Assembly: GCA_049969295.1 (NCBI GenBank) | Contig: JBMFPD010000001.1 | Location: 332 to 64,331 of the forward strand | DNA length: 64,000 bases | Source of the DNA: Anaerolineae bacterium | Lineage (GTDB): Bacteria > Chloroflexota > Anaerolineae > DTPP01 | Reading direction: 5' to 3' | Shown: positions 1,634 to 61,746 of the stretch, piece after piece | Layout: the number at the start of each line of letters is the position of its first letter | How positions within the stretch are numbered: position 1 is the first letter of the stretch | Notes under the pieces: model-generated | Told to the model about the DNA's origin: nothing | What the model saw: only the letters and a program-made list of their open reading frames with translations | The model's database searches: none | Translations under genes and position numbers: made by a program

Positions 1634-3712
1634 ATGGCCCGGCCCTGTCCTCTGGAACGGGTTCGCAACATCGGCATGATCGCCCACATTGATGCGGGCA
1701 AGACGACCACGACGGAGCGGGTCCTGTTCTATGCCGGGCGGACCCACCGCATGGGCAATGTGGACGAAGGCACCACCGTCACCGACTGGATGGAGCAAGA
1801 GCGGGAACGGGGCATCACCATCACCGCCGCCGCGGTGACCTGCTTCTGGCGCGACCATCAGATCAACATCATTGACACGCCCGGGCACATTGACTTCACG
1901 GCAGAGGTCCAGCGCAGCCTGCGGGTGCTGGACGGCGGGGTGGTCATCTTTGACGCCGTGGCCGGCGTGGAGCCCCAGTCGGAGACGGTCTGGCGGCAGG
2001 CCGACCGCTATGGCGTGCCCCGCATCTGCTTCATTAACAAAATGGATCGGTTGGGGGCCGACTTCTGGCGGGCGGTGGAGACGATCCGCGAGCGCCTGAA
2101 CGCCAACCCGGTGGCGGTACAGGTCCCCATCGGGGTGGAGGCCTCCTTCCAGGGCCTGGTGGACCTCATCACGGGCAAGGCCCTCCTCTACGCCGATGAC
2201 CTGGGCACAGTCATCCGCTCCACGGAGGTCCCAGAGGACCTGCAGGAGGAAGTGGCCCTGCGCCGCGCCCAGATGCTGGAGCAGATCGTGGAGACGGACG
2301 ACGCCCTTCTGGAGCGGTACCTGGAAGGGGAGGAGATCGCCCCCGAGGCGCTCCGGCGGGCCCTGCGGCGGGCCACCATCCAGGGCAAACTGGTCCCGGT
2401 CCTCTGCGGTGCGGCGTTGCGGAACAAGGGGGTGCAGCCCCTCCTGGATGCGGTGGTGGACTACCTGCCCTCGCCCCTGGACGTGCCCCCGATCCGCGGG
2501 ACACACCCGAAGACGGGCGAAGTGCTGGAGCGGCCGCCGGAGGAGAACGGCCCCTTGACTGCGCTGGCCTTCAAGGTGGTCTCCGACCCCTACGTGGGGC
2601 GTCTGGTCTACTTCCGGGTCTATTCCGGCAAGGTCCGTTCGGGGCAGGCGGTGCTGAACGCCACCCGGGACTGCAAGGAGCGGATGGGGCGCATCCTGCG
2701 GATGTACGCCAACCACCGCGAGGAGGTGGAGGAGGTCCACACAGGGGACATCGGCGCGGCCCTGGGCCTGAAGATGACCTTCACCGGGGAGACGCTGTGC
2801 GACCTTTCCCACCCCATCGTCCTGGAGCCCATCACCTTCCCGGAGCCGGTCATCTCCGTGGCCATTGAGCCCAGGACGCAGGCCGACCAGGACAGGCTGA
2901 CGGAAGCCCTGGAGCGGCTGGCGGAGGAGGACCCCACCTTCCGGGTCCGGGTGGACGAGAACACCGGCCAGACCATCATCTCTGGCATGGGCGAACTGCA
3001 CCTGGAGGTGCTCCTGGACCGGATGGTGCGGGAGTTCCATGTGGCGGCCCACGTGGGCAAGCCGCAGGTCGCCTACCGGGAGACCATCACCCAGAAGGTG
3101 GAGGCCACGGCGCGGTTCGTGCGGCCGGGGACGGTCAAGCCGCAGTTCGCCGAGGTGACGCTGGAGGTGGAGCCCCTGCCCAAGGGAGGGGGGCTGGTCT
3201 TTGAGAACCGTCTGCCGGAGAAGGTCTGGCCGCCTTCGGTCATCGCCGCGGTGGAGGCTGGCGTGCGGGAGGCCATGGAGAGCGGCATGCTGGCCGGCTA
3301 CCCAATGGTGGACGTCAAGGCGGTGCTGGTCCACGCGGCGAGCGACGAAGAAGGGGCCTCCGAGCAGGCCTTCAAGGTGGCTGGGTCCATGGCCTTCCGC
3401 GAAGCGGCGCGCAAGGCAGGGCCGGTCCTGCTGGAACCGATCATGAAAGTGGAGGTGGTGACGCCGGATGCCTTCACCGGCGACGTGTTGAGCGACCTGA
3501 ACGCCCGCCGCGCCCAGATTGAGCGGATGGAACTCCGCTCCGACGGGATGCAGGTGGTCCGGGCCCTGGTGCCGCTGGCACGCATGTTCGGCTATGCCAC
3601 CGACCTGCGCTCCGCCACCCAGGGACGGGGGACCTTCACCCTGGAGTTTGACCACTACGCCCCGGTCTCCCAGGAGGTGCTGGAGAAGATGCTGGGCGGC
3701 TGGGTGGCCTGA
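1634..3712 (+). CDS. fusA: Elongation factor G
   Basis: G-domain motifs [17 protein letters not shown] and NKMD are present. The start MARP... was trimmed and is preceded by the RBS GGAGGAG. Confidence 0.92.
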
Positions 3713-3715
3713 GCG

Positions 3716-3807
3716 CTCTTCCCGGCGCAGAGGGCACGCCAGGAGGCGTGCCCTACGGTCTGTCGTGCCAGAAGGCCGTCAGAGTTCTATAAGCGGGTCA
3801 GCCCTGT
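3716..3807 (+). repeat. Conserved intergenic element, copy 1 (core CTCTTCCCGGCGCAGAGGGCACGCC-AGGA-GGCGTGCCCTACGGTCTG); ~95% identical to copy 2 across the full extent
   Basis: Begins 3 nt after the fusA stop. Contains the perfect 9-bp inverted repeat GGGCACGCC/GGCGTGCCC. Copies recur at 29205, 34153 and 60210 (the last in reverse orientation). Confidence 0.7.
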
Positions 3808-3826
3808 CCCAAAGAGGGGGTGGGAT

Positions 3827-3854
3827 TTGCCAAAGGGACCCCTCTGCGTATAAT
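3827..3854 (+). promoter_or_regulatory. Sigma-70-like promoter for tuf (-35 TTGCCA, 16-nt spacer, -10 TATAAT)
   Basis: Hexamers read directly from the sequence, downstream of a CCCCTCT hairpin. Confidence 0.5.
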
Positions 3855-3945
3855 ATGGGAGTTTGCGTGCCCCAGATAGGGGCCTTGCGATGTTTTCCGG
3901 CGGCTCCTGGGAGCCGCGCTGAGTACCAGGGAAAGGAGAGGAACC

Positions 3946-29114: not shown

Positions 29115-29144
29115 ATTATAAACCCCAGCGCGGGCAACCGTCAA
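29115..29144 (-). promoter_or_regulatory. Sigma-70-like promoter for ilvD (-35 TTGACG, 18-nt spacer, -10 TATAAT)
   Basis: Read from the reverse complement. Confidence 0.4.
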
Positions 29145-29204
29145 CCACCAGAGGGGAGTCGGCAGGGCTGTCCCCGTTTTTACAAAAGGGGAAGGCCATG
29201 ACCG

Positions 29205-29298
29205 CTCTTCCCGGCGCAGAGGGCACGCCAGGGAGGCGTACCCTACGGTCTGCTGTGCCAGAAGACGGTCAGAGTTCTGTAAGAATGGGTCAGCCCTG
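29205..29298 (+). repeat. Conserved intergenic element, copy 2
   Basis: ~95% identical to 3716..3807; the palindrome is GGGCACGCC-AGGGA-GGCGTACCC. Confidence 0.7.
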
Positions 29299-29317
29299 CC
29301 CGCGGCCTCCGCGGCAA

Positions 29318-29346
29318 TTGACATTCGGCTGGAGTTCTTTTACAAT
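29318..29346 (+). promoter_or_regulatory. Sigma-70-like promoter for the EF-G paralogue (-35 TTGACA, 17-nt spacer, -10 TACAAT)
   Basis: Consensus hexamers read directly from the sequence. Confidence 0.55.
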
Positions 29347-29473
29347 ATTGATTGGCCCCTCGTCGGTGCTCTTTACTATAGGGCGGGGTTGCATTTCCTC
29401 AGTTCTGCACCGGCCTGGGGTGCCGGGGCGTCCCGGCAAGGCACGATTCAGGAACCGCTTTGAGGAGGGTTGG

Positions 29474-31552
29474 ATGGCGCAGTACGCGTTGGATAAGATC
29501 CGCAACATCGCCCTGCTGGGGCACCTGAGTGCCGGCAAAACGTCGCTGGCCGAGGCCATGCTCTACGACAGCGGGGCGACCACCCGTCTGGGGCGTGTGG
29601 AGGACGGCAACACCGTCACCGACTACGACGCCGAGGAGATCCGCCGCAAGATCTCCGTCAGCATGGCCATGGCCCCCTGCGAGTGGAAGGGGGGCAAGAT
29701 CAACGTCATTGACACGCCCGGCTACGTGGACTTCATCGGCGAGGTGAAGAGCGCGGTCTGGGCCGCCGATGCCGCGGTCATCGTGCTGGATGCCGTCTCC
29801 GGCGTGGAAGTGGGGACCGAACAGGTCTGGTCAGTGGCCGACGAACGGCACCTGCCCCGGCTGGCTTTCATTAATAAGATGGATCGCGAGAACGTCAATC
29901 CCGAAGCGGTCCTCGGGCAGTTGCAGGAGGTCTTCGGGGCCCGCATTGCCCGGGTCCAGATCCCTGTGGGCAAGGAGGCCGGTTTCCGTGGGGTGGTGGA
30001 CCTTCTGACCATGAAGGCGTACCTGGGGCCAGAAGGGAAGCCTCAGGAGATCCCTGCTGAATTGCAGGCTGAGGCCGAGGAGGCCCGCTTTGCCCTGGTG
30101 GAACTGGCGGCAGAAGGCGAGGATGCCCTGCTGGAGAAGTACCTGGAGGAAGGGGCCCTGACGGAAGAGGAGATCGCCCGGGGCCTGCGCACTGCCATCC
30201 TGCGGGGCCAGGTCCTGCCGGTCGTCTACGGGGCAGCCACCGCCAACCTGGGCATCCAGGCCTTCATGGACGCTGTCTTCGCCCTCCTCCCCCACCCCGG
30301 TGAGGTGCCCGTGCGGGCCAGGGACCTGGGCACGGGCGAAGAGGTGGAACTTCGCTCCGAGGAAGATGGGCCCCTGGCCGCCATGGTCTTCAAGACCATG
30401 GCCGACCCCTACGTGGGCAAGATCTCCTACCTGCGCATCTTCTCCGGCGTCCTGGAGTCGGACTCCCGCGTCTTCAACCCCCGGACCGGCCAGGAGGAAC
30501 GGATCGGCCAGCTGGCCATGATGCGGGGCAAGGAGCAGATCCCCGTGCCGGCCCTGCGGGCTGGCGACATCGGCGCGGTGACCAAACTGGCGGAGACGGC
30601 CACGGGCGATACCCTGTGCGACCGGGGGCGGCCCCTGGAACTGCCCCGGCCGACCTTCCCCTACCGGCCCTTCTGGGTGGCGGTGAAGCCGGAGACGAAG
30701 GCCGATGCGGCCAAGATCACCACAGCCCTCACCCGCCTGTGCGAGGAAGACCCCAGCCTGGAGTGGCACCAGGAGCCCAGCACCAAAGAGATGATCCTGA
30801 CGGGCATGGGGGACGTGCACATTGACGTGGCGGCGCGCCGGCTCAAGGAGCGCCTGGGGGTGGGTATCGTGCTGGCCGTGCCCAAGGTCCCCTACCGGGA
30901 AACCATCACCAAGACCGTGAGCACCCAGTACCGCCACAAGAAGCAGACCGGCGGCGCGGGCCAGTTCGCCGAGGTGCACCTGCGGGTGGAACCCCTGGAG
31001 CGGGGGGCTGGGTACGAGTTCGTCTGGGAGGTCTTCGGCGGGCACATCTCCAGTTCCTTCCAGCCCTCCATTGAAAAGGGGATCAAGCAGGTGATGGAAC
31101 AGGGCGTCATCGCCGGGTACCCGGTGGTGGACGTCAAGTGCGCGGTCTATGACGGCAAGGAGCACCCGGTGGACTCCAAGGACATCGCCTTCCAGATCGC
31201 CGGGCGGGAGGTGTTCAAGAAGGCGGTGCTGGAGGCGTCCCCCGTCCTCCTGGAGCCCATCATGAACATCACGGTCACCGTCCCGGAGCAGTTCATGGGC
31301 GATGTCATCAGCGACCTGACCAGCGTGCGCCGGGGCCGCGTGCAGGACACGCAGTTGGAGCACGGCAAGGCCATCATCCGGGGGCAGGCGCCCCTGGCAG
31401 AACTCCTGCGCTACGGGCCGGACCTGCGCTCCATGACCCAGGGGCGGGGCTACTACACCATTGAACTGTCCCACTACGAGGTGGTGCCGCCGCACGTGGC
31501 GGAGCCGGTCATCGCGGCGGCCCGGCGAGAGCGGGAAGAAAAAGAGAGCTGA
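29474..31552 (+). CDS. EF-G-like GTPase paralogue (EF-G2-type) with an atypical G-domain: P-loop GHLSAGKTS, switch II DTPGYVDF (catalytic His replaced by Tyr)
   Basis: 692 aa from MAQYALDKIRNIALLG..., after the RBS GAGGAGGG. All five EF-G domains are recognisable. The track ORF has a 150-aa spurious extension. Confidence 0.85.
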   Translation: MAQYALDKIRNIALLGHLSAGKTSLAEAMLYDSGATTRLGRVEDGNTVTDYDAEEIRRKISVSMAMAPCEWKGGKINVIDTPGYVDFIGEVKSAVWAADAAVIVLDAVSGVEVGTEQVWSVADERHLPRLAFINKMDRENVNPEAVLGQLQEVFGARIARVQIPVGKEAGFRGVVDLLTMKAYLGPEGKPQEIPAELQAEAEEARFALVELAAEGEDALLEKYLEEGALTEEEIARGLRTAILRGQVLPVVYGAATANLGIQAFMDAVFALLPHPGEVPVRARDLGTGEEVELRSEEDGPLAAMVFKTMADPYVGKISYLRIFSGVLESDSRVFNPRTGQEERIGQLAMMRGKEQIPVPALRAGDIGAVTKLAETATGDTLCDRGRPLELPRPTFPYRPFWVAVKPETKADAAKITTALTRLCEEDPSLEWHQEPSTKEMILTGMGDVHIDVAARRLKERLGVGIVLAVPKVPYRETITKTVSTQYRHKKQTGGAGQFAEVHLRVEPLERGAGYEFVWEVFGGHISSSFQPSIEKGIKQVMEQGVIAGYPVVDVKCAVYDGKEHPVDSKDIAFQIAGREVFKKAVLEASPVLLEPIMNITVTVPEQFMGDVISDLTSVRRGRVQDTQLEHGKAIIRGQAPLAELLRYGPDLRSMTQGRGYYTIELSHYEVVPPHVAEPVIAAARREREEKES

Positions 31553-31565
31553 TTCCACACCCCAA

Positions 31566-31602
31566 GGAGGGCAGGGCCGCAGCCCTGCCCTCCTTTTCTT
31601 TT
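31566..31602. terminator. Rho-independent terminator (12-bp stem GGAGGGCAGGGC/GCCCTGCCCTCC followed by TTTTCTTTT) after the EF-G paralogue
   Basis: Read directly from the sequence. Confidence 0.7.
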
Positions 31603-33265
31603 ACAAGCCCGAGGCGCGCCGTGGGGCGGGAGCCCCGTGGCGCAGGGGCACGCGCAGGGTGACCTGGGTGCCGCGGTCCGGGCCGCTGGTCGCGGACTCA
31701 ATGGTCAGGGTGCCGTCAATCAGGGCGCTCCGCTCCTTCATGTTGAGGAGGCCGAAGGAGCGCCGCTTGTCGTAGTCCTTTTCCACGGCCGCGACGTTGA
31801 ACCCCACGCCGTCGTCCCGCACCGTGACCACCAGTTCCTCGCCCTGGGCCTCCAGGCGCAGCCAGACGTGCTGGGCCTTGGCGTGCCGCTTGATGTTGTT
31901 CACCGCCTCCTGGATGATGGAGAAGACGGTCCCTTCCACCTGTAGGGGCAGCCGCTCGTGGAAGTTGACCACCTCTAAAGAGACCTCAAACTCCTCGCTC
32001 CCCTGCAACTGCTCCACATAGGACTGCAGCGCGGCGACCAGGCCCTGGGTCTCCAGGATGACCGGGCGCAGTTCAAAGAGGAGGAGCCGGGTTTCCTTGG
32101 TGGCCTGGCGCACCAGGCGGCGCAGGGCGTCCAGTTCGGCGTAGACGGCATCGGGTTTCACCTCCAGGAGCCGCTCCACGTGGTCCAGGCCCATGCCGAT
32201 GGCCGCCAGCAACTGCACCGTGCCGTCGTGGAGGTTGCGGGCCAGTTCGCGCCGCACGTCTTCCTGGGCCTTGATGATCTTGTCCCGCTCCTCCCGCAGG
32301 GATTGGTAGAGGCGGGCGTTGTCAATGGCGATGGCGGCCTGGGCGGCAATGCTCTGGAGCATGCTCAGGTCTTCCGTGTCAAACCCGGACGCATCCAGTT
32401 TGTTGAGCACTTCCAGCACGCCGATGGTGCGGCCCCGGATCTCCAGAGGCACAGCGGCGATGGAGCGGGTGGTGAAGCCGGATTGCTTGTCCACCCGGTC
32501 CAGGAAACGGGGGTCCTTCTGCACGTCGTTGACGATGACTGGCTGGCCGTGGGTGGCCACCCAGCCGGCGATCCCCTCGTTCAGGCCGATGCGGAGTTTG
32601 CGCACTTCGGCGCTCTTCTCGCCGATGGCGTACTCAAAGACCAGTTCGTTGGTCTCGGTATCAATGAGCATGAGGGAGGCAGCCGCGGCGTTGACGATGG
32701 TGGTGGCCACCTCCGTGGTTTCGTCCAGGAGTTGCCCCAGGTCAAAGGTGGAGACCATGCTCTGGCCCACCTGGAGGAAGAGTTCCATCTGGGTGAGGCG
32801 GTGCTCCGTCATCTGCACACGCCAGAGGAGCGCGGCCCACTCCCCCAGGAAGGTCAGAAGGGCGCGCAGGTCTGCCTCCCGGTCCTCGGGGAACCCCACG
32901 TTGGGGGGGACCTGCACCGAGAGGGAGCCCATCAACGCGCCGTTGCCCAGGATGGGCGCGCTGAGGAGCAGGGGCAGCCCCTCGCCCAGAGGGTGGCGGG
33001 CGATGGCCAGGCGCGGCACGGGAGCCTGCCTCCCGCGGGCGCTCTCCAGGCGGGCCTGGACACCCCTTTCCCAGCGGTCCACCTGCTCCGCCGCCTTGGG
33101 GTGGAAGGTGCCGAACTGGACGCGGAGGGGAGGTGTCCCCACGAAGAGCAGGGAACCAGCAGGGGCATCGGCCACGCGACAGGCGGTGCGGAGGGAGGCC
33201 TCCAGGAACGAAGGCAGGTCCTTGCTCTCGGTCAGGTGCAGAAGCGTCTCCACCGACAGGCTCAT
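31601..33265 (-). CDS. Sensor histidine kinase with tandem GAF domains, a HisKA_3 H-box and a HATPase_c domain
   Basis: H-box ...ARNLHDGTVQLLAAIGMGLD...; C-terminal kinase signature region ...IQEAVNNIKRHAKAQ...DDGVGF... Confidence 0.8.
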   Translation of the reverse strand: MSLSVETLLHLTESKDLPSFLEASLRTACRVADAPAGSLLFVGTPPLRVQFGTFHPKAAEQVDRWERGVQARLESARGRQAPVPRLAIARHPLGEGLPLLLSAPILGNGALMGSLSVQVPPNVGFPEDREADLRALLTFLGEWAALLWRVQMTEHRLTQMELFLQVGQSMVSTFDLGQLLDETTEVATTIVNAAAASLMLIDTETNELVFEYAIGEKSAEVRKLRIGLNEGIAGWVATHGQPVIVNDVQKDPRFLDRVDKQSGFTTRSIAAVPLEIRGRTIGVLEVLNKLDASGFDTEDLSMLQSIAAQAAIAIDNARLYQSLREERDKIIKAQEDVRRELARNLHDGTVQLLAAIGMGLDHVERLLEVKPDAVYAELDALRRLVRQATKETRLLLFELRPVILETQGLVAALQSYVEQLQGSEEFEVSLEVVNFHERLPLQVEGTVFSIIQEAVNNIKRHAKAQHVWLRLEAQGEELVVTVRDDGVGFNVAAVEKDYDKRRSFGLLNMKERSALIDGTLTIESATSGPDRGTQVTLRVPLRHGAPAPRRASGL

Positions 33266-33949: not shown

Positions 33950-34152
33950 GGCGGCCCTCCCTCTGCGCCTCCCAGCCTTCGGAACAATCGTGCATTGTCA
34001 TTCTATCTGCTTTTATACGCCGTGTCAAGCAAGGGGGTTGTTGGTTGCGGTTGCACCTTGTGTTGGTGAGTCGGGGACACGGGAAGACCGACCTCTCCCA
34101 TCCCCCCATCCCCTTCCCTCCGCATCGGGGAGGGAAGGGGGTGCCGCAACTG

Positions 34153-34200
34153 CTCTTCCCGGCGCAGGGGGCACGCCAGAAGGCGTGCTCTACGGTCCTG
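34153..34200 (+). repeat. Conserved intergenic element, copy 3 (core only)
   Basis: CTCTTCCCGGCGCAGGGGGCACGCCAGAAGGCGTGCTCTACGGTCCTG. Confidence 0.65.
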
Positions 34201-34233: not shown

Positions 34234-34262
34234 TTGACATTCTGCGGGAATGATGCTATCCT
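34234..34262 (+). promoter_or_regulatory. Sigma-70-like promoter of the aromatic operon (-35 TTGACA, 17-nt spacer, -10 TATCCT)
   Basis: Read directly from the sequence; lies 34 nt downstream of element copy 3. Confidence 0.5.
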
Positions 34263-34293
34263 TGGGGCGAAACCGCCCTGGAGCGAGGACCGG

Positions 34294-34458
34294 ATGTCCC
34301 GTACGATCGGAGTTGAGGTGCATACAGCAGGTCCTGTTCCGGCAGGCTGCTCCGGCCGGCAGGGCGGTGATGCGCGCCGCGCGGTGCTGCAGGGCTACTA
34401 CTATTATTTTGCCTTCCTCCCCTCCTGCCCGGGCTCCGCGCAGCGTGCAGGGCCGTAG
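34294..34458 (+). CDS. Putative attenuator leader peptide (54 aa), MSRTIGVEVHTAGPVPAGCSGRQGGDARRAVLQGYYYYFAFLPSCPGSAQRAGP, with a Tyr-Tyr-Tyr-Tyr-Phe-Ala-Phe run
   Basis: ATG preceded by GAGG. The run uses the codons tac tac tat tat ttt, which are rare in this GC-rich genome. The ORF lies between the promoter and the terminator hairpin. Confidence 0.6.
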   Translation: MSRTIGVEVHTAGPVPAGCSGRQGGDARRAVLQGYYYYFAFLPSCPGSAQRAGP

Positions 34459-34494
34459 GCCCGCCCAGCGTACAGCGGTTAGCAGACTCAGGAA

Positions 34495-34530
34495 GCGTGG
34501 AGCCCAAAGGGGCCCCACGCTTCTTCTTTT
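34495..34530 (+). terminator. Attenuator terminator hairpin (GCGTGGAGCCC...GGGGCCCCACGC followed by TTCTTCTTTT) directly upstream of the aroH RBS
   Basis: GC stem plus U-tract. Its 5' arm is complementary (10 Watson-Crick pairs plus one G-U) to GGGCTCCGCGC at 34431..34441, which would act as an antiterminator. Confidence 0.6.
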
Positions 34531-34545
34531 GTGTGGAGGTCCACT

Positions 34546-34935
34546 ATGGCATGTCGGGGTGTGCGCGGCGCCACCACTGTGGAAGCGGACGAGCGAGAGG
34601 CCATCCTCGCCGCCACCGGGGAACTCCTGCAGGCCATGGCTCAGGCCAACGGCATCCAGCCGGAGGACCTGGCGGCGGTCCTCTTCACCTGCACGCCGGA
34701 CCTGACGGCGGCCTTCCCCGCCGAAGCAGCGCGGGGCCTGGGCTGGACCCACGTCCCCCTTTTGGACGCGCAGGAGGTCCCCGTGCCCAGGTCTCTCCCG
34801 CGCTGCATCCGCATCCTCATGCTCTGGAACACCGAGCGCCCCCAGCAGGAAATCCGCCACGTCTACCTGCGCGGGGCCCGGTCTTTGCGCCCCGACCTGG
34901 CCCAACACCCGGACAAGACGCCCCCAGGGCGTTGA
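34546..34935 (+). CDS. aroH: Chorismate mutase, AroH class
   Basis: [15 protein letters not shown]... matches B. subtilis-type AroH. The RBS is GGAGG. Confidence 0.85.
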
Positions 34936-39093: not shown

Positions 39094-39208
39094 CCAGAGG
39101 ATTCTGATCATATCTGATCATACGGACTCCTGAGCACCCCTCCCCCAGCCCCCGCATGCGGGGAGGGGGCCCAGGGGGTGGGGTTGGGGGGCGCACAGCC
39201 GTGCGTCC
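39094..39208. repeat. GC-rich hairpin repeat, family copy A (GAGGATTCTGA...CTGAGCACCCCTCCCCC...GGGGAGGGGG...GCGCACAGCCGTGCG)
   Basis: Nested poly-C/poly-G inverted repeats plus a GCGCACGGCCGTGCGC-type palindrome. Paralogous copies lie at 43898 and 58296. A separate hairpin CCCTTCCCCTTCTCC/GGAGAGAGGAAGGGGG lies at 39043..39080. Confidence 0.7.
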
Positions 39209-43845: not shown

Positions 43846-43897
43846 AGCCCCTTCCGCGGGATCGGAGGGCACGCGGTGGCGGGCTGCACACGTGTCC

Positions 43898-43984
43898 ATC
43901 TTCTGAGCACCCCTCCCCCCGCCTCCTCCCCGCGTGCGGGGAGAGGGCCGGGGGAGGGGTTGGAAGGCGCACGGCCGTGCGCCG
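43898..43984. repeat. GC-rich hairpin repeat, family copy B, between the convergent genes prs and the M1 peptidase
   Basis: CTTCTGAGCACCCCTCCCCCC...GCGGGGAGAGGG...GGCGCACGGCCGTGCGCC (perfect 18-nt palindrome). Confidence 0.7.
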
Positions 43985-58295: not shown

Positions 58296-58405
58296 GGAGG
58301 ATTCTGACAATACGCTCTTCTGAGCACCCCTCCCCCAGCCCCCTCCCCGCACGCGGGGAGGGGGCCCAGGGGGTGGGGTTGGAAGGCGCACGGCCGTGCG
58401 CCCCT
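58296..58405. repeat. GC-rich hairpin repeat, family copy C
   Basis: GAGGATTCTGACAATA...CTGAGCACCCCTCCCCCAGCCCCCTCCCCGCACGCGGGGAGGGGGCCCAGGGGGTGGGGTTGGAAGGCGCACGGCCGTGCGCC; closely matches copy A. Confidence 0.7.
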
Positions 58406-61511: not shown

Positions 61512-61746
61512 GGGGGGAAAGGCCGCTGCACCTTGCGTCAGCCGTTCGGGCGACCTCACCGCTCGCCCGGTGTCGGCACAGGCCGACGCGCCCGACCTCT
61601 CCCCCGAACCCTCTCCTCACCTGCGGGGAGAGGGCTGGGGGAGGGGTCGTCGCTTCCCGCAGGGGGACGGCCTGACCACCGGACGCGGCATCCGCAAAGC
61701 CATCCGCACAAGCACAAGATGGAACCGGGCCGAACCGCAACCCAAC

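Follow-up and report, generated by a model that had tools for sequence, protein, structure and literature searches.

Two EF-G genes in the window

The window analysed here, a 64,000-nucleotide stretch of DNA from an Anaerolineae bacterium, carries two genes for elongation factor G. The str-operon gene, fusA (1634..3712, + strand), lies between rpsG and tuf and encodes the protein referred to below as EFG I. Its GTPase motifs are intact, including the canonical DTPGHIDF reported in the initial annotation, and the tip of its domain IV is degenerate. The second gene (29474..31552, + strand) starts with ATG and encodes a paralogue of 692 amino acids. Pfam detected all five EF-G domains in its translation (GTP_EFTU, EF-G_D2, EFG_III, EFG_IV and EFG_C), in line with the full-length, five-domain protein first described. 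The top NCBIfam model for this protein was NF009381 (896.5 bits). The paralogue is 40% identical to the fusA product over the full length, and 100% identical to a protein annotated as 'MAG: elongation factor G [Anaerolineae bacterium]'. Anticipating its assignment below, we call it EFG II.

The paralogue gene is located outside the str operon, flanked by ilvD and a GAF histidine kinase gene. Downstream, the genes for the GAF histidine kinase and for XRE recur in the closest relatives only, and more distant EFG II genes have unrelated neighbours. Therefore, the neighbourhood gives no functional hint. Codon adaptation indices, calculated against the ribosomal-protein genes of the window, were 0.756 for EFG I, 0.749 for EFG II, 0.652 for tuf and 0.749 for ilvD. 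This measure did not separate the two EF-G genes and is uninformative, because GC-driven bias swamps the expression signal.

GTPase centre and predicted fold of the paralogue

The nucleotide-binding motifs G1 (GxxxxGKT), G3 (DxPG) and G4 (NKMD) are present in the paralogue. The two altered motifs pointed out in the initial annotation were located where it had placed them: the P-loop reads GHLSAGKT (residues 16-23; 29519..29542, +) and the G2/switch I motif RRKISV (residues 57-62; 29642..29659, +). In the latter, Ser61 takes the place of the Thr that coordinates Mg; Arg and Ile are retained. Switch II reads DTPGYVDF (residues 80-87; 29711..29734, +), with Tyr84 (codon TAC, 29723-29725) replacing the catalytic His.

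In pairwise alignments free of gaps, Tyr84 falls on His87 of T. thermophilus EF-G and on the catalytic residue of the fusA product, a His. A His one residue away would have meant that the position had been misread. No His adjoining Tyr84 was found in these gap-free alignments, indicating that switch II was read correctly. Among the 120 closest Chloroflexota homologues, the position is occupied by Tyr in 115, by Phe in 3 and by Thr in 2. Since these homologues come from independent assemblies and show the same pattern, an assembly artefact is ruled out. More generally, the G domain is relaxed across the 120 EFG II homologues.

The AlphaFold (AF2) model of the paralogue displays an EF-G fold (pLDDT 87.9). 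Superposed on B. thetaiotaomicron EF-G2 in its ribosome-bound form (8DMF) and on T. thermophilus EF-G-2 (1WDT), it gives TM-scores of 0.91 and 0.84, respectively. The protein also carries the G' insertion and a complete EF-G domain IV. A Tet-like ribosomal-protection protein or a LepA/BipA-like accessory GTPase would belong to the same EF-G superfamily, and weak profile matches to such proteins were indeed obtained. However, these remained far under the cut-offs of the models for tet_protect (341.7 vs 775), LepA (141.6 vs 533.9), TypA (152.2 vs 757.3) and RF3 (191.9 vs 473), and the complete domain IV and G' insertion also argue against such proteins. We consider this reading extremely improbable, and a Tet, LepA, TypA or RF3 identity is effectively refuted by the profile scores. 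With the LepA, RF3 and Tet models so far from their cut-offs, the roles of back-translocase, rescue factor or Tet-type protection factor proposed at the outset are unsupported.

Transcription unit and upstream repeat

The paralogue gene is preceded by a sigma-70-type promoter, TTGACA-17-TACAAT (29318..29346, +), which matches at 11/12 positions; 0.2 such sites were expected in shuffles. The gene thus has a strong promoter of its own, as initially proposed. The promoter is the same in a 96% relative (L007) and conserved in an 81% relative (L001), and its architecture was also found in two further relatives (L002 and L004). A Shine-Dalgarno sequence, GAGGAGG (29462..29468, +), stands 5 nt 5' of the ATG and is conserved in 4/4 aligned relatives. 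Twelve nucleotides past the stop codon lies an intrinsic terminator (31564..31605, +), composed of a 14-bp stem followed by TTCTTTT. With its own consensus promoter and its own terminator, the paralogue gene is monocistronic.

An upstream element shared with tuf had also been described, and it corresponds to a real repeat. One copy, of about 105 nt, lies upstream of the paralogue promoter (29201..29306, +), another in the fusA-tuf spacer (3712..3815, +), and a core-only copy (34149-34200) precedes an aromatic amino-acid operon. Three copies of the 27-nt core are present in the window, where 0 were expected. The regulatory link to tuf that the shared element might suggest is rejected. The repeat is missing at the orthologous paralogue locus in the 96% and 81% relatives (L007 and L001), and the copy in the fusA-tuf spacer is an insertion relative to 98%, 95% and 82% relatives, the tuf promoter itself being conserved. 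The repeat gave no matches in JGI metagenome contigs. From these alignments it is a recent, strain-specific insertion, not a conserved part of the paralogue gene. Neither the window as a whole nor the leaders of EFG II and aro had a credible match in Rfam.

The paralogue belongs to the EFG II subfamily

The paralogue was compared with the diagnostic residues of EFG II, of types I and II, defined by Margus et al. 2011 (PMC3150367, Tables 1 and 2), in T. thermophilus EF-G-1 numbering. The type I residues are 19 Gly, 28 Leu, 64 Ser, 316 Thr, 360 Gly and 379 Lys/Arg (PMC3150367). The paralogue has 6/6 of these (G16, L25, S61, T308, G352 and K371). The window fusA product has the EFG I residue at 5/6 of the type I positions (A, T, T, A and G) and Val at the Ile position, which is counted as equivalent (PMC3150367, Table 1). 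The type II residues (224 D, 258 V, 272 L, 498 K, 499 K, 543 E and 633 G) are statistical signatures, found in 84-96% of EFG II (PMC3150367). Four of the seven are exact in the paralogue (V250, K489, K490 and E534) and three differ (E216, F264 and D625); the consensus of the 120 closest homologues has 7/7.

The G2 motif of EFG II is relaxed to xxxSx, not RGITI, with r/kxxSI as the Chloroflexi variant (PMC3150367). RKISV of the paralogue agrees with the relaxed form, and its Ser is 100% conserved in the 120 homologues. Phylogenetic placement, one of the checks proposed in the initial annotation, was carried out by neighbour joining. The split between EFG I and a group formed by the Chloroflexi EFG II, including the paralogue, and T. 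thermophilus EF-G-2 (1WDT) was recovered in 200/200 bootstraps, in a distance tree of 625 ungapped columns without outgroup, where long-branch attraction is possible. EFG II genes lie outside the str operon and always have another EF-G alongside, usually the str-operon EFG I (PMC3150367). Beyond the window, at least seven genomes or assemblies have EFG I and EFG II paired in the same MAG; for two of these the pairing was deduced from accession distances alone (about 1,600-2,100).

Other EF-G classes describe the paralogue less well. GHLSAGKT, RKISV and DTPGY, together with its location outside the str operon, set it apart from canonical EFG I, and its score with TIGR00484 (663.9) is just over the cut-off of 659.4, vs 896.5 with NF009381. 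It remained below the cut-offs of the actinobacterial EF-G2 model NF009377 (602.8 vs 890) and of the Bacteroidetes EF-G2 model NF058620 (596 vs 1000). The three-residue KDG insertion in switch I of spdEFG1/mtEFG1 is absent, the paralogue aligning gap-free with T. thermophilus EF-G.

Judged from its sequence, the paralogue is a member of the described EFG II subfamily and no new kind of factor. A His-to-Tyr change, a Gly-type P-loop and a relaxed G2 are defining or typical EFG II traits (PMC3150367), and Tyr in switch II is the norm of the subfamily. The initial annotation was therefore justified in seeing a specialised EF-G paralogue with an altered GTPase centre; the paralogue is not unusual, its traits being typical of EFG II. 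The switch II residue itself is not an oddity either, as a known EF-G2 clade has the same Tyr, which the initial annotation had itself named as counting against its reading. One member is described as GTPase-active in the passages of PMC3150367 cited below (T. thermophilus) and another as GTPase-deficient (M. smegmatis).

Reciprocal changes in the two domain IV tips

In domain IV, loop 1 of the paralogue, HKKQTGGAGQFAEV (30935..30976, +), keeps the Gly-Gly tip and has an added Lys-Lys. Conservation in the 120 homologues is 93-99% per column, all but one column reaching at least 98%, and in alignment A4 the loop is invariant except for A495, which is nearly invariant. Loop 2, VYDGKEHPVDSKD (31145..31183, +), keeps the tip His564 and is 95-99% conserved in the same homologues, the Tyr column excepted (77%). 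The Pfam EFG_IV score is higher for the paralogue than for the str-operon copy (136.8 vs 106.7).

EFG I of the window is a str-operon EF-G (TIGR00484, 959 bits; DTPGHIDF), nested in the Anaerolineae EFG I clade. Its loop 1 (3122..3157, +) is altered and does not read RQTGGRGQYGHV, both tip glycines being lost; loop 2 (3326..3361, +) is likewise altered, not LYDGSYHEVDSS, and the tip His is lost. The altered loop 1 is common to the 12 closest homologues (76-100% identity), in which the whole tip, loop-1 Gly-Gly and loop-2 His, is gone. The nearest EFG I with an intact tip (P0133) is encoded in the str operon of another organism. A 15-base identity between the two EF-G genes at the QFAEV segment was considered as a trace of gene conversion; it is explained by codon bias.

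The tip is relaxed more widely in the class. Among 120 Anaerolineae EFG I, in which the G-motifs are 99-100% conserved while the tip is relaxed, 49 lack a strict TGG/YH tip, and about 35 of these have the loop-2 His replaced. Milder relaxation (His to Asp, altered Gly-Gly) affects about a third of the sampled Anaerolineae EFG I. Searched for in GTDB, the degenerate motif of EFG I turned up only in the species group of the window and in a convergent Planctomycetota EF-G; thus the extreme form is rare.

Substitution rates follow the same pattern. For domain IV of EFG II, dN is 0 in the comparison with the 96% relative and 0.05 in that with the 81% relative, a genome pair for which EFG I gives 0.26. 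Both proteins are under purifying selection (dN/dS 0.05-0.15). Degenerate-tip EFG I and EFG II co-occur in 4/4 genomes of the clade. Intact-tip EFG I also coexists with EFG II, in other Anaerolineae and in Caldilineae MAGs, so that the presence of EFG II alone implies no exchange of roles.

The loop-1 glycines have been described as conserved universally and as required for insertion into the decoding centre; EF-G2mt and Borrelia EF-G2, which act in recycling only, have them altered, and loop-1 mutations impair elongation while sparing ribosome disassembly (PMC8203779). The recycling-only pattern, with the His kept and the loop-1 glycines altered, is that of EFG I of the window. This bears on a further reading, in which the paralogue would be dedicated to recycling or splitting ribosomes, in the way of EF-G2mt, Borrelia EF-G2 or spdEFG2. 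The paralogue is indeed the second EF-G of the window and lies outside the str operon, and among PDB sequences the top match to the G domain at its N-terminus is mitochondrial RRF2. However, recycling-only factors keep the catalytic His and the GTPase pocket and alter the loop-1 glycines (PMC8203779; bioRxiv 10.64898/2026.05.25.727771). The paralogue has the opposite pattern, Tyr84 with an intact QTGGAGQ, the recycling type being EFG I, and it groups with EFG II and not with EFG I or spdEFG2-like sequences. The splitting factor suggested in the initial annotation is also unlikely because recycling normally needs GTP hydrolysis. Altogether, we regard a recycling paralogue as very improbable.

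The reciprocal pattern of tip and GTPase centre in EFG I and EFG II is, at the level of the two sequences, the new result of this analysis.

A possible division of labour

The explanation we favour, and hold to be moderately probable as a whole, is that EFG II binds GTP and the ribosome and translocates with slow or uncoupled hydrolysis, while EFG I recycles ribosomes. The paralogue would bind GTP and the ribosomal factor site in the manner of EF-G. Its conserved, extra-basic domain IV tip (KKQTGGAGQ; DGKEHPVDS) would then insert into the decoding centre, where it could promote or stabilise tRNA-mRNA translocation. Because the catalytic His is missing, GTP hydrolysis would be slow or uncoupled. 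The following steps are less certain. Work may be divided between the two proteins, with much or all of translocation falling to EFG II and EFG I keeping the GTP-hydrolysis-dependent recycling of ribosomes with RRF. Such a division is proposed because the changes are reciprocal: EFG I has lost the tip and kept the GTPase centre, and EFG II the converse. The pattern suggests this division for the EF-G copies of the 64-kb window; a third, intact EF-G may be encoded elsewhere in the genome. EFG I, which is under purifying selection, might still translocate with its altered tip.

In its strongest form, the proposal is that the roles have been swapped in this clade, the His-less EFG II being the principal and probably essential translocase and EFG I serving in recycling only. 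We put this forward tentatively, as a possibility that is doubtful at present. If true, the split between translocation and recycling would have arisen here recently and independently, and this would be the first case of routine elongation on an EF-G lacking the catalytic histidine. The relaxed tip in about a third of the sampled Anaerolineae EFG I suggests that the shift is perhaps ongoing class-wide. According to the prevailing view, translocation is unlikely to be what EFGII mainly does (PMC4342817).

The feature first flagged is thus ordinary: paralogues of the EFG II type with a switch II Tyr have been on record since 2011, and structures have been solved. The interest lies in the partner gene. 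The general assumption is that the str-operon EFG I is a stable translocase that the cell cannot do without; here it has lost the very residues that translocation is held to require universally, and the His-less paralogue guards the corresponding tip residues more tightly than the rest of its sequence. If the division of labour is true, it would bear on the purpose of EFG II proteins and on whether a translocase without the GTPase histidine can sustain elongation. It would also offer a natural, evolutionarily recent protein pair for telling apart what translocation and recycling each require.

Comparison with known systems

The activity of EFG II members has been reported differently in Thermus, Mycobacterium and Bacteroides. 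T. thermophilus EF-G-2 (PDB 1WDT/2DY1) is an EFG II with five domains, like the paralogue (39% identity, TM-score 0.84). The two share the Gly-His start of the P-loop (GHAGSGKTTL vs GHLSAGKTSL), the Tyr at the position of the catalytic His (DAPGYGDF vs DTPGYVDF), a loop 1 of the form KKQTGG.GQ and the loop-2 His, and they cluster together in the tree. The Thermus protein differs by TKLD instead of NKMD, Thr instead of Ser in G2 and several deletions (665 vs 692 aa). Moreover, the domain IV tip of its partner, Thermus EF-G-1, is intact, unlike that of EFG I in the window. GTP hydrolysis and poly(Phe) synthesis are reported for T. thermophilus EF-G-2, with the same Tyr, in the passages of PMC3150367 that cite Connell 2007.

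M. smegmatis EF-G2 (PDB 9K0Z/9K10) is likewise an EFG II with Tyr for His (LIDTPGYADF) and has a str-operon EF-G1 alongside. It is described as lacking ribosome-dependent GTPase activity, trapping ribosomes, non-translocating and dispensable (bioRxiv 10.64898/2026.05.25.727771). By analogy, the paralogue could be a stress-specific, GTPase-dead trap that binds post-translocation, non-rotated 70S ribosomes and slows translation under stress, the str-operon EF-G performing all translocation and recycling. The shared subfamily and His-to-Tyr change, the relaxed G domain of EFG II homologues and the near absence of GTPase activity in MsmEF-G1 H88Y (bioRxiv 10.64898/2026.05.25.727771) are consistent with such a trap. 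However, the G domain of the paralogue is far less degraded. MsmEF-G2, with GPSGGGKT, QQRSV and TKLD, has lost the His-Ile-Asp of the P-loop, the Arg and Ile of switch I and NKMD (bioRxiv 10.64898/2026.05.25.727771), and the paralogue retains the His of its P-loop, Arg, Ile and Ser in switch I, and NKMD in canonical form. Its score under the actinobacterial model cut-off and a promoter of consensus housekeeping type, at which no stress-regulator site was seen, also argue against a trap, which furthermore leaves the loss of the EFG I tip in this clade unexplained. We therefore judge the trap unlikely.

For B. thetaiotaomicron EF-G2 (PDB 8DMF/7UVP), an alternative EF-G, slow translocation that does without GTP hydrolysis has been reported. 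This protein is 35% identical to the paralogue and gives the best superposition. A protein of this kind would be a slow, hydrolysis-independent back-up translocase in energy or carbon limitation, EFG I remaining the main translocase during growth. The ribosome-bound structure is the top TM-score match (8DMF, 0.91), B. thetaiotaomicron EF-G2 reportedly enables GTP-independent translation and is strongly induced by carbon limitation (PMC10294740), and the domain IV tip of the paralogue is conserved. On the other hand, the paralogue scores under the Bacteroidetes model cut-off, and the Bacteroidetes G2 variant is YGYSV (PMC3150367) vs RKISV. The Bacteroides gene is starvation-induced via a dedicated regulator (PMC10294740); such a context was not seen at the paralogue, whose neighbouring genes are not conserved. 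Finally, the tip of EFG I should be intact if EFG I were the main translocase. A back-up role is rather unlikely in our view.

The division of labour proposed here is closest to systems in which translocation and recycling are split between paralogues: EF-G1mt/EF-G2mt, Borrelia EF-G1/EF-G2 (spdEFG1/2) and P. aeruginosa EF-G1A/EF-G1B. The recycling-only member of split systems keeps the GTPase His and has an altered loop 1 (PMC8203779), a description that fits EFG I of the window. In P. aeruginosa, it is the copy in the str operon that translocates poorly, EF-G1A being 75-fold below the non-str EF-G1B in poly(Phe) synthesis (PMC3832671), and EFG I of the window would fit this arrangement as well. 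The translocases of the split systems are of the EFG I/spdEFG1 type and have the His, whereas the candidate translocase here is a His-less EFG II.

Identification of the second EF-G as an EFG II protein

The second EF-G gene (29474..31552, + strand) starts with ATG, preceded by GAGGAGG at a spacing of 5 nt, and encodes a protein of 692 aa that is 100% identical to the GenBank entry "MAG: elongation factor G [Anaerolineae bacterium]". Pfam recognized the domains GTP_EFTU, EF-G_D2, EFG_III, EFG_IV and EFG_C. The three unusual motifs described in the initial annotation were found by reading the sequence: P-loop GHLSAGKT (residues 16-23), G2/switch I RRKISV (residues 57-62) and switch II DTPGYVDF (residues 80-87). 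Tyr84 (codon 29723-29725) aligned with His87 of T. thermophilus EF-G, without gaps over the entire N-terminal 180 residues, and likewise with the His of the str-operon fusA product, EFG I (1634..3712, + strand; 40% overall identity). Both alignments agree and no His adjoins Tyr84, excluding a misread position. The AlphaFold model, computed from 44 sequences (pLDDT 87.9, pTM 0.80), superposed on EF-G structures, the best match being ribosome-bound B. thetaiotaomicron EF-G2 (8DMF, TM 0.91); the TM score was 0.84 for T. thermophilus EF-G-2 (1WDT).

Margus et al. (PMC3150367) distinguish EFG II by Gly for Ala at the first P-loop position, Leu for Thr at the last, Ser for Thr in G2, and three domain II substitutions. 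The paralogue has all six of these type I residues (G16, L25, S61, T308, G352, K371). The window fusA product agrees with EFG I at five of these positions; at the sixth, Ile is replaced by Val, which is counted as equivalent (PMC3150367). Of the seven "type II" EFG II positions, four matched exactly; a consensus built from the 120 nearest homologues matched at all seven. The G2 variant described for Chloroflexi EFG II is r/kxxSI (PMC3150367); that of the paralogue is RKISV. In a neighbor-joining tree (625 ungapped columns), a method in which long-branch attraction is possible, Chloroflexota EFG II and T. thermophilus EF-G-2 (1WDT) were split from all EFG I in 200 of 200 bootstraps, and the window fusA product was placed inside Anaerolineae EFG I. 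The shared derived residues agree with the tree. In the NCBIfam search the top model was NF009381 (896.5 bits); neither the actinobacterial nor the Bacteroidetes EF-G2 model reached its cut-off, and the scores for Tet, LepA, TypA and RF3 fell far short of theirs. The features altered in the paralogue are the ones published as diagnostic of EFG II, the subfamily to which it belongs.

Tyr in place of the catalytic His is, from the sequences compared, the norm within this subfamily. Among the 120 closest EFG II homologues (Chloroflexota MAGs, 60-100% identity), the position is occupied by Tyr in 115, Phe in 3 and Thr in 2. Moreover, switch II reads LLDAPGYGDF in T. thermophilus EF-G-2 and LIDTPGYADF in M. 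smegmatis EF-G2. Since known EF-G2 proteins carry the same Tyr, the substitution cannot be considered unusual: the gene and motifs of the initial annotation stand, and its reading of them is supported in part, the highlighted feature being a known EFG II trait.

Expression signals and intergenic repeats

The EFG II gene is monocistronic, with a terminator (14-bp stem) 3' of its stop codon. The predicted promoter of its own was confirmed as TTGACA-17-TACAAT (29318..29346); it is identical in the relative whose EFG II is 96% identical, well conserved in the 81% relative, and of the same architecture in the 63-64% relatives. The neighbours, ilvD (divergent) and a GAF histidine kinase gene (convergent), are conserved among close relatives only. 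A TTGACG-18-TATAAT promoter-like site (29115-29144, - strand) faces ilvD, so that the 400-nt ilvD/EFG II spacer carries divergent promoters. The place of ilvD upstream of EFG II is taken in the 96% and 81% relatives by an ORF of ~1,880-1,890 aa with no Pfam match, indicating a rearrangement at this boundary.

The upstream element said to be shared with tuf exists. It is a ~105-nt repeat with a 10-bp GC hairpin (GGGCACGCC..GGCGTGCCC), found at 3712-3815 and 29201-29306 (+ strand), and as a core-only third copy at 34149-34200 (+ strand), preceding an aromatic amino-acid operon. Every copy is followed, 37-69 nt downstream, by a sigma-70-like -35 box. The repeat is missing between fusA and tuf in the 98%, 95% and 82% relatives, where the tuf promoter is conserved, and does not occur in front of EFG II in the 96% and 81% relatives. 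It matched neither Rfam nor the JGI metagenome contigs. By this comparison it is a strain-specific small repeat, inserted relative to close relatives, which may be MITE- or REP-like. It gives no evidence of tuf/EFG II co-regulation.

Two other intergenic features were noted. A leader of ~290 nt (34234-34545) separates a TTGACA promoter from a chorismate-mutase-like ORF (34546..34935) heading the aromatic amino-acid operon (DAHP synthase, prephenate dehydrogenase, EPSP synthase). It ends with a terminator-like hairpin and T-run (about 34491-34530), matches no Rfam family, and could represent an attenuator or a riboswitch not yet described. A second, G/C-rich repeat family of about 70-95 nt (…TCTGAGCACCCCTCCCCC…GCGGGGAGGGGGCC…; D1, D2, D7) is present in 3-4 copies (39113-39208, 43886-43984, 58303-58403, 61602-61647).

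Decay of the domain IV tip in the str-operon EF-G

The locus is of interest solely for its canonical EF-G, whose decay is reciprocal to the conservation in EFG II. In the window fusA, the GTPase motifs are intact, and three conserved domain IV tip motifs are decayed (loops 3122-3157, 3212-3253 and 3326-3361): RQTGGRGQYGHV, (I)VGGVIPKEYIPAV and LYDGSYHEVDSS are each replaced by other residues, with loss of both glycines of loop 1 and the His of loop 2. The decayed tip is common to the 12 closest EFG I homologues (76-100% identity; NCBI, ENA, JGI and Logan assemblies). When the 120 nearest EFG I from Anaerolineae were put to a strict TGG/YH tip test, 49 failed, these 12 included. Among the rest of the 49, the loop-2 His is replaced in ~35 (mostly DGSYDEE), often with a changed Gly-Gly, and a handful merely have Thr-to-Ser or Thr-to-Ala beside intact Gly-Gly and His. 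Milder changes occur in roughly a third of sampled Anaerolineae EFG I.

A GTDB scan for the extreme motif returned only the species group of the window and one Planctomycetota EF-G (MAG JAJDCQ010000245, locus positions 1778-3931), encoded directly upstream of an rplC (L3)-like ORF. This protein is 50% identical and has an intact catalytic His, but its domain IV tip closely resembles that of the window EFG I, with the sequences ELGGKPQFAEV and GGAFNPEESTS and no loop-2 His. It is an apparent case of convergence, in a phylum for which a split of EF-G functions has been suggested (PMC3150367).

Constraint is reversed between the two proteins. G motifs are 99-100% conserved in EFG I, and the G domain is relaxed in EFG II (mean column entropy 0.68 vs 1.06). 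In domain IV, mean entropy is 0.97 for EFG I vs 0.66 for EFG II, whose loops 1 (YRHKKQTGGAGQFAEV) and 2 (YDGKEHPVDSKDIAF) are 93-99% conserved per column (loop-2 Tyr, 77%). In comparison with the sister genome GCA_052744535.1, EFG I has a domain IV dN of 0.26 and EFG II one of 0.05; compared with the 96% relative, the EFG II value is 0. Overall dN/dS (0.05-0.15 in both genes) indicates purifying selection; thus neither is a pseudogene. Degenerate EFG I and EFG II occur together in all four checkable genomes of the clade (the window contig, GCA_052744535.1, ENA ERZ4756919, with contigs of equal coverage, and the NLE76... MAG). In other Anaerolineae and Caldilineae MAGs, EFG II is found together with an EFG I whose tip is intact; hence EFG II is old in the class, and the loss of the EFG I tip is secondary.

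Possible division of roles and comparison with known EF-G2 proteins

The loop-1 glycine pair has been called universally conserved and is required for insertion of domain IV at the decoding centre; EF-G2mt and Borrelia EF-G2, which act in recycling only, carry an altered pair, and loop-1 mutations impair elongation while hardly touching the disassembly of ribosomes (PMC8203779). Of the two P. aeruginosa proteins, EF-G1A from the str operon shows poly(Phe) synthesis activity 75-fold below that of EF-G1B, encoded outside it (PMC3832671). Translocation by EFGII is possible without EF-G (PMC4342817). From these data, together with the family membership and sequence patterns observed here, we infer the roles of the two proteins. 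EFG II would bind GTP and the ribosome as a translocase-type factor with a slow or uncoupled hydrolysis step, and would probably carry much or all of translocation in this clade. The str-operon EF-G, with its perfect GTPase centre and decayed tip, would keep hydrolysis-dependent recycling. We consider this division tentative and rather unlikely to be real; its main weakness is that a third EF-G with an intact tip may be encoded elsewhere in the genome, beyond the window. Such a split, if real, would mark a notable departure from the stability that EFG I is assumed to have, and would give EFG II a function in this lineage. One main rival is a Bacteroides-type translocase serving as back-up in starvation; it offers no explanation for the EFG I tip decay.

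The literature is divided on what the Tyr means for EF-G activity. For T. thermophilus EF-G-2, GTP binding, GTP hydrolysis and poly(Phe) synthesis are reported (PMC3150367, citing Connell 2007). In M. smegmatis EF-G2, ribosome-dependent GTPase activity is minimal and Tyr98 faces away from the gamma-phosphate; the H88Y mutation nearly abolished the GTPase of MsmEF-G1 (bioRxiv 10.64898/2026.05.25.727771). The other main rival is a stress-specific ribosome-trapping factor of this Mycobacterium type, which does not account for the EFG I tip decay either. The window EFG II is nearer the Thermus type: it has the P-loop His, the switch-I Arg, Ile and Ser, and a canonical NKMD, all of which MsmEF-G2 has lost.
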